Of a stretch of 64,000 bases of DNA, positions 2,043 through 52,267 are shown one piece after another (the first letter of the stretch is position 1; each line of letters opens with the position of its first letter). The notes below the pieces were generated by a model that worked only from the letters and a program-made list of their open reading frames with translations, searched no databases and had not been told where the DNA came from. The translations under genes and the position numbers were made by a program. Where the stretch lies: contig CAZOQP010000002.1 of assembly GCA_964582295.1 (NCBI GenBank), positions 8,563 through 72,562 on the forward strand, in the 5' to 3' direction. This DNA is from an uncultured Candidatus Saccharibacteria bacterium (GTDB lineage Bacteria; Patescibacteriota; Minisyncoccia; Phycocordibacterales; Zambryskibacteraceae).

Positions 2043-2669
2043 CTACAGAAGACCCTTTTTTCTGTTGAACTCCAGAACCCTCTGGAGTTCAACTTTTGGA
2101 GTGCGTGGGTCCTCATCCTGTGTAAACATATCCATGTAGCGCAAGGCGATGGCAGGGTTTCCGCACAAGGTACGGATAACCTGGCGCACAGTCACGTGGT
2201 GGTACCACGGACTTCTGACCTCTTCCATCTGTCGAAGGAGTTTTCCCGCGTCTGTCCAGCGCGGAATTCCCAGGATCTCATCTCCATCCGCTTGTTTCTC
2301 AACTTTAATACAGTCGCGAAGCTTTCCTTGGATCGATACCGACGATGCAAGGAAAGTTTCCTGGAGATGCAAACCTTCCGGATCGTCTTTATCCTTCTTA
2401 CCGACAGGATTGATTGGTGTGTCGAGGAAAAAAGAGATAGAGAACGGCTCCGACTCCTTTGCGAATTCCCCGATCAGGCGACGGATCGTAGCAGACATTT
2501 TTTCGTCTGACTCCCCAGTTTCCATCGGTAAACGCACTGTGGTCCTCTCGTTCTTCGTGTAGTCGAAATTGAGTATCTCGACTTCTCCATCACCTTGTAT
2601 CCGGAGCGGAGCTGCGCAAAGCGCAAAACTAACGAGGGGTTTGATGAGGGTTTGCACGGGAACCTCCAA
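2043..2669 (-). CDS. hypothetical protein (208 aa), co-transcribed with the downstream DEDD exonuclease
   Basis: Intact ORF lying between a consensus sigma70-like promoter and the exonuclease gene. Contains an HHVTV (HxTx-like) segment, but a 2H-phosphoesterase assignment is not supportable by eye. Confidence 0.45.
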   Translation of the reverse strand: MEVPVQTLIKPLVSFALCAAPLRIQGDGEVEILNFDYTKNERTTVRLPMETGESDEKMSATIRRLIGEFAKESEPFSISFFLDTPINPVGKKDKDDPEGLHLQETFLASSVSIQGKLRDCIKVEKQADGDEILGIPRWTDAGKLLRQMEEVRSPWYHHVTVRQVIRTLCGNPAIALRYMDMFTQDEDPRTPKVELQRVLEFNRKKGLL

Positions 2670-2719
2670 AATGTGAAAGAGCTAGAGGGTCGCGTGTTTG
2701 CGAAATCCCTTTGTTTTCT

Positions 2720-2747
2720 ATTATAGCATTTATAGTATAAAAGTCAA
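2720..2747 (-). promoter_or_regulatory. sigma70-type promoter for the 2669-1361 operon (TTGACT, 16-nt spacer, TATAAT)
   Basis: Minus-strand reading is gtacTTGACTtttatactataaatgcTATAATagaaa. The -35 is the reverse complement of agtcaa at 2742-2747 and the -10 is the reverse complement of attata at 2720-2725. Confidence 0.45.
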
Positions 2748-2799
2748 GTACTTTTTACATATCAAAAATAACGCCTAAACAGAGCCGTTTTTGGGTGCC

Positions 2800-4587
2800 T
2801 TATCTCTCGGCTTTTGAGCGGCCTTGCTGAGAGAGGATTTTTTTGCGAAGTCGCACGGATTTCGGAGTAACTTCCATATATTCGTCGTCCTGCATTATTT
2901 CCATCACGCGTTCTATTGAAAGTTTCCATGCTGGCGCTAAAAATATTCCTTCGTCGGAGCCCGAAGCGCGCATGTTGGTCAATTGTTTTCCTTTTGTCGG
3001 GTTCACATACAAGTCTTCGCCTTTTGAAGTGTTGCCGATAACCTGACCTTCATAAACTTCGTCCGATGGTTCCATATACAAAGTTCCTCTCTGCTGAAGA
3101 TTGTCCAAAGAGAAAGCCAAGCACTTGCCGGGCATCATGGATATCATGGCGCCGACCGCCTGACGCTTTATTTCTCCGGCGTAGGCGCGGAATTCAATGA
3201 AGCGGGATGAAAGAATACCGAGGCCTTTGGTGTCTATGATGAATTGGCCGCGAAAACCAAGAAGTCCGCGCGTAGGCATTTCAAATGTGAGGCGTTCCGT
3301 GGTGCCGCCGTGTTCACTTTTTACATTCATAAGAGAGCCGCGCCTTTCTGTCAGTTTGCCGATTATGGTTCCAGACATTTCTTTTGGCACATCTATAACT
3401 ACTTCTTCAAAAGGTTCGAATTTTACTCCGTCACGCTCCTCGGTGATAACTTCCGGTTCCGAGACCTGCAATTCAAAACCCTCGCGGCGCATATTTTCAA
3501 GAAGGATGCCGATGTGAAGTTCTCCGCGACCAGAAACTTTAAAACGGTCGTTCTCTGAAAAATCCACCTTGAGCCCCACGTTTACCTCTAGCTCTTTTTC
3601 AAGTCGATCGCGTATCTGGCGGGAGGTTACAAACTTTCCTTCACGGCCGCCGAAAGGGGAATCGTTCACCAAAAAGAAAAGGGAAATGGTCGGCTCATCT
3701 ATTTTAATGGCAGGCAATTGAGCCGCATTCTCATCAGTGGAAATGCTTTCGCCGATGAAGATGTCTGGAATGCCGGCTATCATCACGATGTCGCCTTCGC
3801 CTGCGTCATTTGTTTCCAGCCGAGAGATGCCTTCAAATGTGAAAAGCTTGGTAATCTTTCCTTTACGGGTAACACCTTCCGGGTTTTTCACGAAAACATC
3901 CTGACCGGTCCTGAATATTCCTTTATGAATGCGGCAGATGGCCATGCGCCCCAGGAAATTGTCATAAGCCAGGTTGAACGGCTGAGCAATGCCCGCTTCC
4001 GTATTTTCTTTTCCGCCAGAGGGTTTTACTTCTTCAATAATAGTATCTAAAAGGGGAGTGAGGTCGTTTGAAGTGTCTTCCATTTTTCTTTTTGCCCAAC
4101 CTTCGCGCCCAACTGCAAAAAGAGTAGTGAAATTGCACTGATCGTCTGTGGCTCCAAGTTCCAGGAAAAGCTCCAACACTTCGTTCTCCACATCTTTTAT
4201 GCGGGCCGCCGGCTTGTCTATTTTATTTATGATGACTATCGGCTTGAGGCCGAGCTCAAGGGATTTTTTCAGTACGAAGCGGGTTTGAGGCATGGGGCCT
4301 TCCTGTGCATCAACAACCAAAAGCACAGTGTCTACCGCACGAAGCACGCGTTCCACTTCAGATCCGAAATCCTGGTGGCCCGGAGTATCTACGATGTTTA
4401 TTTTCGTGTCTTTGTAGCGGATGGAGCAGTTTTTGGAATAAATAGTAATACCGCGCTCTTTTTCTAGGGCGTTTGAGTCCATGGATGTGCCCTCGGCGAC
4501 AGCCCCCGTTTGCTTCAAAATAGCATCGGTAAGGGTGGTCTTTCCGTGGTCCACGTGCGCGATAATTGCAATATTTCTTATTTCCAT
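2800..4587 (-). CDS. typA: translational GTPase TypA/BipA
   Basis: G1 motif [15 protein letters not shown] and NKID motifs; ~596 aa with EF-G-like domain order. Start placed at [18 protein letters not shown] rather than the upstream extension of the ORF track. Confidence 0.9.
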
Positions 4588-6939: not shown

Positions 6940-6947
6940 TAAATAAC

Positions 6948-6976
6948 AAAACCCCCAGGATTATCCTGGGGGTTTT
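6948..6976. terminator. bidirectional intrinsic terminator hairpin between convergent genes
   Basis: aaaacccccagga-ttat-cctgggggtttt: perfect 13-bp stem flanked by an A-run and a T-run. Confidence 0.6.
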
Positions 6977-6981
6977 GTTAT

Positions 6982-7143
6982 TTATTCCTGCCGCGCTTCC
7001 TCCCTTGCGTGCTCCGTGTCATTCTTTGCGTCGTCGGCTTCTTTGCGTGCTGCCTCGGCCTCATCTTCTTTCTCGTCCGCTATCACTTCGCGCGCCGCTT
7101 GTATATCTTCTGTGGCCTCCTCTATATTATCTTTGTCTGCCAT
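6982..7143 (-). CDS. unannotated small highly acidic protein (53 aa, predicted helical)
   Basis: ATG at 7143 with GAGGAAG about 11 nt upstream; stop TAA at 6984-6982. Translation: MADKDNIEEATEDIQAAREVIADEKEDEAEAARKEADDAKNDTEHAREEARQE. Shorter than the 60-aa cutoff of the ORF track. The plus-strand ORFs listed here are antisense and low-complexity. Confidence 0.3.
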   Translation of the reverse strand: MADKDNIEEATEDIQAAREVIADEKEDEAEAARKEADDAKNDTEHAREEARQE

Positions 7144-9516: not shown

Positions 9517-9529
9517 ATGTACAGAGCTT

Positions 9530-10336
9530 TCACTTTAGATATTGCAGTGCTTCCAAAAAGTAAGCACCTGCAAGGCTCCAGTCAACCGGGTCAAGTGAGT
9601 TTCCGCTCGGCCGGAGTTTGCCTTGAGCGTCAATGCTTATATCGGGAAACTCTTTCGCAAGAGGTCCGACCAAGTCCACCTTACCTGGTCCGAGTCCACC
9701 AGCTGCAACGAGGCCGATACCTGGGAACCTCTCTTGGATAGCTTGTGCGAATGGGAGAAGGAAGGGGGCATCCATACCTTTTCCTTTTCCTCCACTTTTA
9801 TCCAGAAGAACCCGATGAATTATTCCTTCGTAATCTTCCAGTTTCCTGACAACCAAGTCTCTGTCATTTCCTGCCGCATCAAGGGCCTTTTCTCCGACCT
9901 GGAGTATCACTTCTACCTTTTTACGGGATGTATGAACTCCATGTGCGACCTGGCCTGGATCAGGCCACGGCATGTCTAGTTGGATCGCATGGATATTGGT
10001 CCCGCCAAAGGTAATCGCCCTGGCAAGACTTCTCCACACTTCCGGGTCGCAACGGTCGTAATCTGCATAGTGGAGACAGTTGTAAACATTCTTTGAAGCG
10101 AAGATGCTGGCGATATGTTCCTTTGCCGGAAAAGCTTTTGACCACTTCGTATCCAGGCCATGAAGCGTTTTGTAGCTCATCATGACCCCGACATGAAGTA
10201 ATCTTTTGGAGCGATACGTGCGATGCATCTGGAAAATCTTGAGCATGGCCTGCACCTGCTCAAAACTTGTGAAATCGGTGATGCCGATATACGGTCGAAG
10301 GACCATCTTGCTCTCCTTGTTGAGTTCTGAATTCAA
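9530..10336 (-). CDS. TIM-barrel protein of the phosphoribosylanthranilate isomerase (TrpF/PRAI) family
   Basis: C-terminal half aligns by eye to TrpF: VLLDKSGGKGKGMD vs VLDNGQGGSGQRFDW, and LVAAGGLGPGKV vs LLAGGLGADNCV. No other trp genes are in the window. Confidence 0.45.
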   Translation of the reverse strand: MNSELNKESKMVLRPYIGITDFTSFEQVQAMLKIFQMHRTYRSKRLLHVGVMMSYKTLHGLDTKWSKAFPAKEHIASIFASKNVYNCLHYADYDRCDPEVWRSLARAITFGGTNIHAIQLDMPWPDPGQVAHGVHTSRKKVEVILQVGEKALDAAGNDRDLVVRKLEDYEGIIHRVLLDKSGGKGKGMDAPFLLPFAQAIQERFPGIGLVAAGGLGPGKVDLVGPLAKEFPDISIDAQGKLRPSGNSLDPVDWSLAGAYFLEALQYLK

Positions 10337-15960: not shown

Positions 15961-16302
15961 CTAACCTAGTTTTAAGTAGGTAGTTAGGAAGTCTTTTTCT
16001 TCAACAGGATAGATTGTCAGCTCTGGTATCTTGCTAACTTCAACCCACTCAGGACTATAAGATTGCTTTTCATCCTTGTTATTCGCTTCTACGCTATCTT
16101 TATGAAGCTGTGCTTCGCCTGAGACATATTCACATAGAAATAATGAGTGCTTATCTCCTCTAGGGTCTATAAATTCAAGAAGGTTGTCTTTGAGGTTCGC
16201 TTCTACTGAAGTCTCTTCCTGCAATTCTCTAAGAACCGCTTGATTTAACTCTTCTCCTTCTTCTACTCCGCCACCAGGCAAATACCCAATACTCCTCTCC
16301 AT
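15961..16302 (-). pseudogene. N-terminally truncated NUDIX hydrolase paralogue (113 aa)
   Basis: The Nudix box GGGVEEGEELNQAVLRELQEETS starts at residue 10. The N-terminal beta-strands of the fold are absent, and an in-frame stop lies 6 codons upstream of the ATG. An intact NUDIX gene lies immediately upstream. Confidence 0.4.
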
Positions 16303-16365
16303 TATTGAAACGGTGCATCATCAAAAGTTTACCCTCTCTCAATACGACTGCAGTTGCCCGTGTCC

Positions 16366-16788
16366 TCATTGGAAGTACTTTTCAAGCACATCAAAATAAT
16401 CACTTCCATCATCCACCTCTTTATAATCGTTTTTATCAACCCATCTAAAGTTGTTGTGTTCTTCACTTAAAGAAACTTCACCAGAAAGATATTTAGTCTT
16501 AAAAGCAACCAAATAAACGACCTTTGGATAATTTCGGTGGCTTTTAGGGAACTCGTGATACCAAACAGCAAAGGGATTGAAAACTTCTATCTCAAGACCT
16601 GTTTCTTCTCTAACCTCTCTTTGAAGAGCGGTAATTAGACTAGAAGCATCAGCATCCTTTGCCTCATCTTCTTGAATTTTCCCTCCAGGGAAATCTAGTC
16701 CTTCTACTGGGTCAAACAACACTAGGACCTTTCCGTCTTTTTCAATGAAAGCTTTTTGACCAACACAGAACAAGGCATCATTTTTCAT
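16366..16788 (-). CDS. NUDIX hydrolase
   Basis: Nudix box GGKIQEDEAKDADASSLITALQREVREETGLE. 140 aa. Confidence 0.8.
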   Translation of the reverse strand: MKNDALFCVGQKAFIEKDGKVLVLFDPVEGLDFPGGKIQEDEAKDADASSLITALQREVREETGLEIEVFNPFAVWYHEFPKSHRNYPKVVYLVAFKTKYLSGEVSLSEEHNNFRWVDKNDYKEVDDGSDYFDVLEKYFQ

Positions 16789-17108
16789 ATAAGTTTAAAA
16801 TCTATCATCTTAATAGGCGTATCTAATGAGACCTTATCTCCATAATAACCCCTGTAGTGGTTAAGCATATCTTCTTGGTCCTTATATCCTTCGTGCCCAA
16901 CAAAATCGCTGTCTTCCAGCTCTCCAAGCTTCTTTTCCTTGACCTCAGTTATCTTTCCCTTAGCGAACTCTTCTCCTGTTTCCTTATTAAGCATTAGGAA
17001 GTCATCTCCAACACCAAGACCCTTATCGTCGAACAGTCTCCATGTCGAGGTCTTTTCCCCCGACAGTATCTTTGGAATTAGATGTGGCTTAAACTTCAGA
17101 GTTTTCAT
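16785..17108 (-). CDS. ASCH (PUA-like) domain protein
   Basis: N-terminal ...KPHLIPKILSGEKTSTWR typical of ASCH. ATGA overlap with the NUDIX gene downstream. Confidence 0.55.
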   Translation of the reverse strand: MKTLKFKPHLIPKILSGEKTSTWRLFDDKGLGVGDDFLMLNKETGEEFAKGKITEVKEKKLGELEDSDFVGHEGYKDQEDMLNHYRGYYGDKVSLDTPIKMIDFKLI

Positions 17109-17112
17109 TAAT

Positions 17113-17463
17113 TCAACGCTTAATACCTAGCCTTACTATGGACTTGAAAGAATCAAGTATTTTTCGGTAGATATCCAAAATAAAATTAAAAACAATAATA
17201 AAAAAATAAAAACACATTGATAGTATATAGAATTTGCCTATTGGAGATTTAATTGTTAAATAAATTATACCCGCAATCGGAAATCCATATTTTAGAATGA
17301 AAAGCACTACTACTTTTAGTCTAGAAACTATCTTTTTTGGGTCTGGGTTGTATGTCGTAAAAATTCTGTCAAAAAATGATTTACTAAAGGGCGCAACTAT
17401 CCCGCTGACTATAAAAGTAAAAACTAGAAATATAATTGTTTGTTTATCCATAATAATATACAA
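17113..17463 (-). CDS. integral membrane protein, AT-rich gene of unknown function
   Basis: 3 hydrophobic segments. First gene of the membrane-ASCH-NUDIX operon next to tRNA-Asn. Confidence 0.4.
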   Translation of the reverse strand: MYIIMDKQTIIFLVFTFIVSGIVAPFSKSFFDRIFTTYNPDPKKIVSRLKVVVLFILKYGFPIAGIIYLTIKSPIGKFYILSMCFYFFIIVFNFILDIYRKILDSFKSIVRLGIKR

Positions 17464-17502
17464 ATTTTAATCTAATTTTTAACAGGGTTAAAAAATTAAT
17501 AG

Positions 17503-17574
17503 CTCCCCGGGTAGGATTCGAACCTACGACCAATCGCTTAACAGGCGACTGCGCTACCGCTGCGCCACCGGGGA
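17503..17574 (-). tRNA. tRNA-Asn (anticodon GTT)
   Basis: Cloverleaf folds by hand. Acceptor stem TCCCCGG/CCGGGGA, D-arm GCGC-AGCGGTA-GCGC, anticodon loop CTGTTAA, T-arm GTAGG-TTCGAAT-CCTAC, discriminator G. Confidence 0.85.
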
Positions 17575-17810
17575 ATATTTTTTATGAACTGTCTTCCGCG
17601 ATAACTTTTTAGAGATTTTTCCCTCTTTAATGCGGAAGCTCTGTCGCTATAAACTTCTGAATATATGACTATCCATAAACCGTCATATTGGGAAGTGTAG
17701 CCCTTAAACTTATGTTCGTTATGAAGATCTAATCTTTGGTCTAAATCCTTTGTTTGGCCAATGTAGATCTTATTGTGTTTAGCGTTATGGATTGCGTAAA
17801 CAGTAAACAT
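17538..17810 (-). CDS. GIY-YIG nuclease-superfamily protein (small stand-alone YhbQ/COG2827-like)
   Basis: VYAIHNAKHNKIYIGQTKDLDQRLDLHN... (GIY...YIG motif plus conserved Arg/Glu region). Its 3' end overlaps the first 37 nt of tRNA-Asn. Confidence 0.7.
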   Translation of the reverse strand: MFTVYAIHNAKHNKIYIGQTKDLDQRLDLHNEHKFKGYTSQYDGLWIVIYSEVYSDRASALKREKSLKSYRGRQFIKNIPRWRSGSAVAC

Positions 17811-17825
17811 TTCAATTTACTTATG

Positions 17826-17869
17826 GAACTGCGCTACCTCCGCCAGCTGGCGGAGCGCCACCGGGGGAA
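17826..17869 (-). repeat. partial direct duplicate of the tRNA-Asn 5' end plus ~6 nt of its upstream flank; the D-loop is replaced by a 16-nt perfect palindrome
   Basis: actgcgctacc + [TCCGCCAGCTGGCGGA in place of GCT] + gcgccaccgggg + aatat matches 17547-17580. Cannot form an anticodon arm, so it is not a second tRNA. Confidence 0.6.
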
Positions 17870-17943
17870 TATGTTCTCTTGTGGAGAACAGGGGAAATGA
17901 TAGCAAAAAGGGTAGTTTTTTCACAGCGCGCTAAAATGGAAAG

Positions 17944-18168
17944 ATGCTTATACATGTGAAGGTTTCAGCAGGTGAGAAAAGGGAAAAATTTGAAGAAATT
18001 TCGGATACTCGTTTTGTGATATCTGTGAAGGAAAAAGCGGAAAGGAACATGGCCAACAGGCGCGTGATGGCCATACTGGCCGGACATTTCAAGGTTCCTG
18101 AAAGATCCGTAAGGGTAATAAGTGGTCACCATTCACCGTCTAAAATTATTGAAATAATAGGCAAATGA
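17944..18168 (+). CDS. DUF167 (YggU-like) protein
   Basis: 74 aa; ...VKVSAGEKREKFEEI...FVISVKEKAERNMANRRVMAILAGHFKV pattern characteristic of the YggU family. Confidence 0.55.
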   Translation: MLIHVKVSAGEKREKFEEISDTRFVISVKEKAERNMANRRVMAILAGHFKVPERSVRVISGHHSPSKIIEIIGK

Positions 18169-18595: not shown

Positions 18596-18737
18596 TCGCT
18601 CGGGGTGTTTCTTGAAAATGAAAAGTACGCACTCGAACACGAAAAGAGACCACTCCGGGGCGTTTGCCCAAGTCTTAGTCTCTTTTCGTGTTCGAGTGCT
18701 TTACTCAAAAAACATTTTCAGGAAACACCCCTCGCTC
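18596..18737. repeat. intergenic palindromic repeat element, family member A (142 bp, bounded by TCGCTC hexamers)
   Basis: Starts 5 nt after the hpf stop. Outer arms gggtgtttcttgaaaatg / cattttcaggaaacaccc; inner perfect 22-bp arms gcactcgaacacgaaaagagac / gtctcttttcgtgttcgagtgc. Shares GAAAAG..GTACGCA with members B and D. Confidence 0.7.
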
Positions 18738-23685: not shown

Positions 23686-23791
23686 TCGCTCGGGGTGATG
23701 ACGAAAAGAGTACGCATAAAAATCTGCTGATTTTTTGCTCACCCTCGCGCCGTCGCGCTGCACAGCCTCTTTTCGTCATCACTCCTCGCTC
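23686..23791. repeat. intergenic palindromic repeat element, family member B (106 bp, TCGCTC-bounded)
   Basis: Starts 4 nt after the mreB-like stop. 19-bp arms gggtgatgacgaaaagag / ctcttttcgtcatcactcc. 105/106 identical to the reverse complement of member C at 32213-32318. Confidence 0.75.
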
Positions 23792-32002: not shown

Positions 32003-32006
32003 AAAG

Positions 32007-32194
32007 TCGCTCAGATAACACCCTTTTTCAAACAGCTGCCGCTCCGGCGGTTACGAAATCATAGTCGTCTCATAACGTAAAATGGGCAACTCGTCGGCAC
32101 AATCCGCCTCCTCAAACACTCCCATTTTCCTACTCAACTCCTTGATTTCTAAAACCACCTCCCGCTTGTGTGAAAAAGGGTATTATCTTCGCTC
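32007..32194. repeat. intergenic palindromic repeat element, family member C1 (188 bp, TCGCTC-bounded)
   Basis: Starts 4 nt after the mrdA stop. Terminal arms agataacaccctttttcaaacag / ctt(g)tgtgaaaaagggtattatct. Starts aaaagtcgctc like member A. Confidence 0.6.
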
Positions 32195-32212
32195 CTTAAG
32201 GATTATAACTTA

Positions 32213-32318
32213 GAGCGAGGGGTGATGACGAAAAGAGGCTGTGCAGCGCGACGGCGCGAGGGTGAGCAAAAAATCAGCAGATTTTTATGCGTACTCTTTT
32301 CGTCATCACCCCGAGCGA
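32213..32318. repeat. intergenic palindromic repeat element, family member C (inverted copy of B; GAGCGA-bounded)
   Basis: 105/106 identical to the reverse complement of 23686-23791. Flanks outside the hexamers are unrelated between the two copies. Lies 18 nt after member C1. Confidence 0.75.
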
Positions 32319-32399
32319 CTACTGTTTGAAAAATGCTGCATTTTGAGCGGTCTTCATTGACAGGACGCCCCTTTACTCTATAATGCCGAGGAATTAAAT

Positions 32400-52160: not shown

Positions 52161-52267
52161 GCGCTCGGCGTGTTGCCGAAAAGGGTACGCATAAAAATCT
52201 GCTGATTTTTTGCTCACTCTCAAACCGTCGTTTTCCGAGAGCCCCTTTTCGGCAGCACCCCTCGCTT
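52161..52267. repeat. intergenic palindromic repeat element, family member D (about 107 bp, CGCTC/TCGCT-bounded)
   Basis: Starts 5 nt after the rmuC stop. The central 35 nt (gtacgcataaaaatctgctgattttttgctcac) are identical to member B. The arms differ from B but remain mutually complementary (ggcgtgttgccgaaaaggg / cccttttcggcagcacccc). Confidence 0.7.

Follow-up and report, generated by a model that had tools for sequence, protein, structure and literature searches.

Between the stop codon of rmuC (52156) and rplU (52360) lies a short element, here called member D, that shares an identical interior with a second element, member B, while the stems enclosing that interior differ between the two. 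The question raised by this locus is what kind of element D is, and why its stems should change on both sides together. It is addressed here within the window, meaning the whole 64,000-nt stretch of DNA that was analyzed, and by comparison with copies in metagenome contigs and other genomes. By virtue of its protein matches, the organism falls among the Paceibacterota/Minisyncoccia of the Patescibacteria.

Member D and its comparison with member B

Member D is the top covariance-model match in the window (80.8 bits, E 1.5e-21). Its parts are listed below, with strand given for the whole element.

52161 to 52267, written on the + strand, probable folded strand -: member D, whole element
52162 to 52166: left flanking direct repeat CGCTC
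52167 to 52185: 5' arm of the outer stem P1, GGCGTGTTGCCGAAAAGGG, pairing with 52243-52261 and carrying three both-side changes relative to B
52189 to 52213: hairpin P2, GCA-T-AAAAATC / TGCT / GATTTTT-TGC, with a bulged T and the loop CTGCTG that is conserved family-wide
52217 to 52241: hairpin P3, CTCTC-AAAC-CGTC-GTTT-TCC-GAGAG, with AAAC/GTTT in D for the GCGC/GCGC of B
52243 to 52261: 3' arm of P1, CCCTTTTCGGCAGCACCCC, from the fold and the comparison of B with D
52262 to 52266: right flanking direct repeat TCGCT, from flank composition

The window contains the core common to B and D, GTACGCATAAAAATCTGCTGATTTTTTGCTCAC, at exactly three places (23710-23742 on +, 32262-32294 on - and 52185-52217 on +), and shuffled sequence would be expected to give 0. 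The original prediction had given B and D an identical core of 35 nt; the identity holds, and the length is 33 nt. The stems that it had quoted for the two members are present in the window as written, differ from one another and are self-complementary. Compared base by base over 106 aligned positions, B and D are separated by 19 substitutions and one indel. Of the 19, 12 combine into six both-side changes that leave pairing intact. Three of these fall in the outer stem, as had been proposed, and three more, which had been missed, fall in P3. In the outer stem, an A-T pair of B corresponds in D to a T.G wobble at 52173/52255, to C-G at 52176/52252 and to G-C at 52184/52244; one further position, 52169/52259, is uncompensated, D having C.C there, B having G.T and C having G-C. 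The double changes of P3 join 52222-52224 with 52231-52233 and distinguish the GCGC-CGTC-GCGC of B from the AAAC-CGTC-GTTT of D. By a rough estimate, chance would give about one doubly changed pair between B and D and fewer than one that still pairs. On either strand, both members fold far better than their shuffles, with z between -5.8 and -7.0 and none of 200 shuffles as good.

Other members in the window

Four further members, some of them composite or degenerate, are found in the window.

18596 to 18737: member A, composite, with a TCGCTC-GGGGTG...CACCCC-TCGCTC shell as in B and D
23686 to 23791, written on the + strand, probable folded strand -: member B (76.3 bits), between mreB (stop 23682) and a DNA polymerase III delta'-like gene (23857)
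32004 to 32197: member E, a 22-bp hairpin between TCGCTC flanks, enclosing a degenerate nested CGCTCCGGCGG... unit
32213 to 32318, written on the - strand, probable folded strand +: member C, a covariance-model match, 96% identical to B over 116 nt including flanks

In an unfiltered covariance-model run, only B, C and D were recovered as full members (76-81 bits), and the next match reached 11 bits. All five members are intergenic and begin a few bases past a stop codon, A coming after a ribosome hibernation factor gene, B after mreB, and both E and C sitting between PBP2 and greA. On both sides, the repeat (T)CGCTC borders each of these five members and about ten metagenome copies. The interior of A retains GTACGCA...TGCT remains of the P2 base, and a 70-nt hairpin stands in place of the top of P2. 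On the - strand this hairpin looks like an inverted copy without P2, and there is a weak model match (18637-18692 on -, 9.9 bits). Next to C, at 32310-32349, lies a half copy of the arm of member E.

Two other features of the window were observed in passing. A perfect 22-bp palindrome, TAAATAACAAAACCCCCAGGAT / ATCCTGGGGGTTTTGTTATTTA, at 6940-6984 resembles a two-way terminator and is unrelated to the repeat family. The region 16001-18000, around a tRNA-Asn gene (17502-17574), has a G+C content of 0.378 against about 0.47 elsewhere and a negative GC skew.

Distribution and anatomy of the family

The repeat family to which member D belongs is dispersed, non-coding, widespread in Patescibacteria and absent from Rfam. 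When metagenome contigs were scanned with the pattern CGCATAA-N4-CTGCTG-N4-TTTGCTC, at least 120 loci were found among CPR-rich metagenomes from groundwater, aquifer and wastewater samples; the viral contigs scanned for the family core held no copy. A genome scan with the end motifs CGCTCGGNGTG...CACNCCTCGCT gave 117 matches, most of them in other, mainly high-G+C phyla. Keeping loci below 55% G+C left two matches, one in a Minisyncoccia and one in a Paceibacterota genome, and both have the family core. Searched with Rfam 15 at gathering thresholds, the whole window returned only two tRNAs and no match to the repeat family, and the member B region at E up to 10 returned only sub-threshold microRNA and snoRNA hairpin models of at most 19 bits. 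Literature searches on candidate-phyla structured RNAs and repeats, covering also two preprints on genome language models and one on Patescibacteria tRNA introns, turned up no account of the element. Several known motifs were compared with the core by eye, namely the hammerhead, group II domain V, SRP domain IV, tmRNA and the ACGR loops of guanidine-II, and none fits. An IHF site was likewise set aside, an IHF-like match being seen by eye only in the P2 variant of the window.

The median length of the family is 114 nt, and all copies share a three-way junction that is closed by P1 and holds the hairpins P2 and P3. P1, the closing helix, spans 15-40 bp almost without sequence conservation and is followed by a short joiner. 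P2 takes the form GCA-T-AA-NNNN-C / TGCT / G-NNNN-TT-TGC, in which the loop CTGCTG and the bulged T are invariant. A motif TC-NNN-CTCG then separates P2 from P3, which is G+C-rich (GCGC-CGTC-GCGC, GGCC-CGTC-GGCC or GGC-TACCC-GCC, for example), and a motif CT(G/C)CG-NNN stands between P3 and the return strand of P1.

Covariation of the three helices

The covariance model was built from a seed of 49 trimmed copies aligned with MAFFT, an alignment that was not fitted to structure. RNAalifold recovered P1, P2 and P3 from this seed, in which 81.1% of cells pair compared with 63.7% after shuffling, and none of 500 shuffles reached the observed value. A search with the model found 114 copies in 100 of the loci listed, about a dozen of them without the exact scan pattern. 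In the resulting alignment of 108 distinct copies, 89.7% of cells pair; shuffling lowers this to 65.2%, with none of 500 shuffles reaching the observed value, and sliding the partners lowers it to 35-53%. Both-side changes were found in all 24 modelled pairs, so that the compensation first noticed between B and D became stronger as copies were added. Within P2, the four variable pairs covary across the family (UA/AU/GC/CG) and are almost never broken, and the upper 4 bp of P3 covary as well, with 91.9% paired. Even the P2 base covaries in copies outside the scan pattern (GCA/TGC, GGA/TCC, GCG/CGC, GGG/CCC and AGA/TCT), and in those copies the CTGCTG loop and the bulged T are unchanged.

The three helices of the family are kept paired by matched changes, both between copies and between orthologs. 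Constraint on the element in its folded single-stranded form, either RNA or ssDNA, is thereby shown. Selection on structure, as originally proposed, is supported by covariation, with the qualification that primary sequence is under constraint too, namely in the junction motifs, the bulged T and the CTGCTG loop of P2.

Which strand folds

To assign the folded strand, the 5' arm of P1 was aligned to the reverse complement of the 3' arm, an arrangement in which both kinds of transition mismatch are scored alike, using one representative for each of 68 clusters. On the written strand, A.C mismatches outnumber G.T by 67 to 24 and pyrimidine-pyrimidine mismatches outnumber purine-purine by 59 to 4, an asymmetry that is significant in the inner part of P1 and in the outer part. 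In P2, C.A is the only recurrent non-Watson-Crick pair of the written strand. On the complement, the A.C and pyrimidine pairs become G.U and purine-purine pairs, which are the tolerated kinds, and this points to the complement as the strand that folds. Such sequence comparison makes it likely that B and D fold on the - strand and C on the + strand, in each case opposite to the strand on which the member is written. The covariance-model alignment leans the opposite way (G.T 65, A.C 49), as expected of an alignment fitted to the written strand, so the strand call is drawn solely from the symmetric mismatch census. The window copies B, C and D also have G.T rather than A.C on the written strand.

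The mismatch bias is alike in every class of flanking-gene orientation. The orientation of the element itself shows no bias with respect to flanking genes (33 same/same, 22 opposite/opposite and 34 mixed), and its relation to replication as judged by GC skew, 50 against 34, is not significant. Since the bias is independent of neighboring genes and orientation is unbiased, the constraint goes with the strand of the element itself rather than with transcription by the host.

The asymmetry bears directly on whether the element might be a palindromic protein-binding site in double-stranded DNA or the plain transcription terminator of the upstream gene. Copies do abut gene 3' ends, and the typical distance from stop codon to core equals the length of an arm. 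However, the mismatch asymmetry implies a single-stranded form, and the half-sites of a DNA-binding palindrome would not covary freely. As for termination, the 10 nt after P1 have a mean of 3.5 and 2.8 T on the two strands, amounting to a T-run on neither; neither a sigma-70-like promoter nor a T-run terminator was called at B or D; and member A, read by eye, already has a separate canonical terminator downstream. Both forms of this explanation are scarcely credible.

Probable insertion, descent and neighbors

Loci orthologous to that of D were located through RmuC homologs in conserved synteny. In L239/L240, whose RmuC is 82% identical, an element occupies the site of D and its junctions can be aligned. 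In L241/L242 and L243 (RmuC 72-73%) the site is empty, with 40-41 nt from the rmuC stop to rplU, and this spacer contains a TTGCAA...TAGAAT-type promoter without any hairpin. Comparison of filled and empty sites gave no clean target-site duplication at the D site, and the TCGCTC flank, being identical in many copies, may be the element's own rather than a duplication. Two short-read contigs of the Logan assembly of run SRR6868922 start or end within D (near window positions 52188 and 52214), reflecting an assembly break such as a repeat would give. Taken with the site that is filled in two lineages and empty in two, the near identity of B and C, and nested and tandem copies (the latter in L129 and L225), these breaks make it likely that copies arise by insertion.

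Two other relatives, L244 and L245, have no copy at the sites of B and C. Several differences were noted at these places. Right after the mreB stop of L244, which is the site of B, a perfect 21-bp hairpin with a 26-nt loop and unrelated sequence occupies 3272-3350. Between PBP2 and greA both relatives have doxX, and the window has E and C there instead (32003-32399); tblastn found no doxX remnant in the window at member E. In L245, a Minisyncoccia relative, an extra ORF of 353 amino acids (2099-3160) without a Pfam match lies between mreB and the DNA polymerase III delta'-like gene and is absent in the window and in L244.

No neighbor protein recurs across the at least 120 loci, the largest cluster being present in 8 of the 120 loci listed. 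The ten most recurrent neighbor families are all housekeeping and none is of a mobile element, and no transposase, RAYT, reverse transcriptase or integrase was identified near the loci listed. Because the element is too short for a gene and has no recurrent neighbor protein, it is probably non-autonomous. Long target duplications were rejected for the main family, since of 109 copies only 7, including tRNA-linked ones, have an additional P1 arm close by.

The ortholog in L239 shows how a single copy can change in place. Its P1 has GT changed to TA in both arms together with a mirrored CT/AG insertion of 2 nt, and 15 perfect pairs remain; in P2, the second pair has gone from C-G to A-T within a perfect helix of 10 bp. 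Decay has reached P3 and the junction letters (CGCATAA/TTTGCTC), and the ortholog scores 44.6 bits compared with 80.8 for D. This shows in part that single copies can decay in the junction and P3 while P1 and P2 stay paired.

The same ortholog invites a purely mutational account of the matched stem changes, in which one arm is rewritten from the other, by template switching within a strand or by repair templated on the hairpin, so that a single event mirrors a substitution or an indel. The mirrored insertion and the adjacent double change of GT to TA are of this kind, as are the three adjacent P3 pairs that changed together between B and D. In the tRNA-linked copy L213, 17 nt of the copied tRNA end recur, in exact reverse complement, as the 5' arm, and this looks like outward growth of a palindrome from the flanking tRNA. 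Strand-neutral copying, however, does not predict the excess of A.C over G.T and of pyrimidine over purine mismatches. Nor would it keep short helices (the variable 4 bp of P2 and the 4 bp of P3), loops and junction letters in more than 100 copies. Hairpin extrusion would be needed in any case, which makes arm-copying more a complement to structural constraint than a replacement for it. As a full explanation it is improbable; as a contributor, template switching in quasi-palindromes may have helped to shape the long stem.

Termini and modularity

The conserved termini TGAATTRCRAAAC...GTTTYGYAATTCA surround core-bearing elements and also elements with unrelated interiors. Examples of the latter, some of which directly adjoin a core-bearing copy, have the termini TGAATTACAAAAC...GTTTCGTAATTCA.

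L204, 6529 to 6633: conserved termini with an unrelated interior
L154, 2773 to 2909: conserved termini with an unrelated interior
L188, 3746 to 3848: conserved termini with an unrelated interior

One subfamily has the terminal inverted repeats GAATTGCGAAAC/GTTTCGCAATTC about 100 nt apart, a feature that is not common to the whole family. In the loci listed, all pairs of conserved termini are about 90-125 nt apart and none surrounds a gene. The TCGCTC-GGGGTG shell, too, is found without the standard core, in members A and E. When the composition of 92 flanks was examined position by position, no conserved motif emerged, and TCGCTC was confined to one subfamily.

Termini and shells with other interiors make it conceivable that the core enters existing hairpins. 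Under such a scheme, only the core of about 70 nt (P2 and P3) would be mobile, landing in the loops of host hairpins such as terminators, palindromic repeats and tRNA T-arms, and differences in P1 between copies would reflect where each hairpin came from rather than compensatory change. In support of it, L204 and L154 have the termini around unrelated interiors, A and E have the shell without the core, the P1 of tRNA-linked copies is built from T-arm-like sequence, and the unrelated hairpin of L244 stands exactly at the site of B. Against it, the empty D sites of L241 and L243 lack any hairpin, so that the core must have come in along with P1; the P1 of B, like its flanks, recurs in C, which argues that P1 was copied with the core; and the P1 of D is a close variant of that of B and, in the ortholog of D, changed in place. 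At least in this lineage, then, P1 travels with the core, and we give little credence to movement of the core by itself.

The tRNA-linked branch

One subfamily adjoins tRNA genes. Read on the tRNA strand, an intact tRNA comes first (for Ser, Arg, Tyr or Trp) and, after 23-60 nt of spacer, a GGGATTCGAA-like arm, followed by P3, P2, TGAC and a copy of the tRNA end. This last part is a direct duplicate of the same tRNA from T-loop position 56-58 through CCA, 11-29 nt in length. The copies with an exact duplicate of the tRNA 3' end are as follows.

L225, 6359 to 6760: two tandem units, with a tRNA-end copy that includes 13 nt of 3' flank
L221, 3600 to 3400, - strand: tRNA-linked copy
L202, 1424 to 1180, - strand: tRNA-linked copy
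L213, about 9527 to 9720: tRNA-linked copy whose fold is an acceptor/T-arm minihelix with the three-way junction replacing the T-loop
L169: tRNA-linked copy
L190: tRNA-linked copy

The possibility that the GGGATTCGGTCA subfamily consists of tRNAs or tmRNAs was rejected, since ARAGORN made no call at any element and the resemblance is one of copied T-arm sequence. The tRNA-end copy may have originated as a long target duplication, as a chimeric copy made with a precursor tRNA, or as a recombinase site.

In 8 of 8 tRNA-adjacent copies, the probable folded strand is co-directional with the tRNA. This brings forward the idea that the family consists of host RNAs, either small RNA genes or cis modules, transcribed from the probable folded strand or co-transcribed with tRNAs and mRNAs. 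The junction would bind a cellular protein or ligand, P1 would confer stability or serve as a processing site, and copies would arise by duplication and be retained because they are useful. Since the tRNA-adjacent copies end in a tRNA 3' end with CCA, RNase P and tRNA-end processing could release them. The independence of the strand bias from neighboring genes agrees with a host RNA, and so does the old L239 ortholog, whose perfect pairs in P1 and P2 persist despite diverged flanks. Conservation of the core with covariation over many lineages is also in its favor, and both this and the pairing retained in the old ortholog suit a useful host RNA as well as they suit a mobile element. On the other hand, neither a promoter nor a terminator was called at B or D, P1 is followed by a T-run on neither strand, and the orientation and gene neighborhood of copies are random. 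That same L239 ortholog has lost P3 and the junction letters, with the drop in score that this brings, presence among close relatives is patchy, and nested and tandem copies resemble insertion debris. On balance, we consider a host RNA somewhat unlikely, and the chief alternative to a mobile element.

Comparison with known systems

The REP and REPIN sequences of bacteria are short, intergenic, multi-copy and non-autonomous, occur in either orientation and form a hairpin of about 100 nt whose pairing is preserved through matched changes. They presumably act as folded ssDNA and are mobilized by RAYT (TnpA-REP) proteins. The present element is likewise short, non-coding, intergenic, dispersed in either orientation and built on a hairpin kept by matched changes. 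In a REPIN, however, two REP units stand inverted to each other, the stems being conserved and the loop free; here it is the closing stem that is free and the interior that is conserved, and the P1 arms differ almost completely between copies, so that there is no inverted conserved unit. The 92 flanks show no conserved GTAG-like tetranucleotide at the hairpin's foot, and a RAYT gene was not seen near any of the 120 loci listed. REP sequences are, moreover, usually species-specific, whereas the core of this family is common to many lineages.

Bacterial MITEs, such as Correia of Neisseria, RPE of Rickettsia and ERIC/IRU, are defined by transposase-binding terminal repeats and target duplication. 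The family resembles them in being about 100-150 nt long, dispersed and non-coding, in its nested and tandem copies and in its insertion polymorphism. One subfamily has conserved inverted termini, TGAATTGCGAAAC..., and another has the identical short end repeats TCGCTC. In contrast to MITEs, most copies share no termini, and the constant part is internal and structural. There is no target duplication that varies by site; the same TCGCTC stands in many copies and none in most. Strand asymmetry is also not predicted by double-stranded cut-and-paste transposition.

The attC sites of integrons are imperfect palindromes of 57-141 nt, right after gene stops, that are read as one folded single strand. 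Placement after stops, a strand-specific folded single strand, and structure conserved far more than sequence are shared with the present family. Unlike attC sites, its members lack RYYYAAC/GTTRRRY (R''/R') ends, no integrase (intI) was seen, and the neighbors mreB, PBP2, greA, rmuC and rplU are syntenic housekeeping genes and not cassettes.

A last comparison is with TwoAYGGAY, an Rfam entry for a multi-copy structured RNA motif of unknown function with repeat associations (bioRxiv 10.64898/2026.09.22.753630). In both, hairpins rise from a stem at the base, letters of the loop are conserved, a genome has tens of copies, and there is an association with repeats. They differ in that there is no sequence or model similarity, that TwoAYGGAY belongs to another phylum, and that it lacks tRNA 3'-end duplication.

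Proposed function and significance

We tentatively prefer the reading that D is a copy of a dispersed, non-coding, probably mobile and non-autonomous element that is constrained as a folded single strand, and regard it as having nearly an even chance of being right. By analogy with known systems, a factor encoded elsewhere would recognize the invariant P2 loop and the junction on the folded strand, whether as ssDNA or as a transcript. P1 would serve to present the P2-P3 core to this trans-acting factor, which in turn would copy or move the element, much as RAYT may be taken to do with REPINs. A bolder and quite unlikely extension is that the family constitutes an undescribed strand-specific structured RNA or ssDNA module of Patescibacteria that is both self-propagating and tRNA-mimicking. 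In one branch, such a module would take its closing helix from a duplicated tRNA 3' end and ride on tRNA transcription and processing, with its three-way-junction head recruiting an enzyme.

Whichever of these applies, the family is a structured dispersed repeat that is linked in one branch to tRNA 3' ends. Its design is unusual in that the core is conserved and the stem is free, the reverse of the arrangement in classical REP and MITE repeats. The family can enter RNA and repeat catalogues at once and can be used to mask assembly breaks. The clear strand bias makes the strand, the choice between RNA and ssDNA, and the protein that reads the element directly testable. The exact duplication of tRNA 3' ends hints at a mechanism of insertion or processing tied to tRNA genes, one that is not known from bacterial repeats so far. 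Finally, since the genomes of Patescibacteria are tiny and streamlined, an element of about 110 nt present at about one copy per 20-50 kb would not be expected to be idle.
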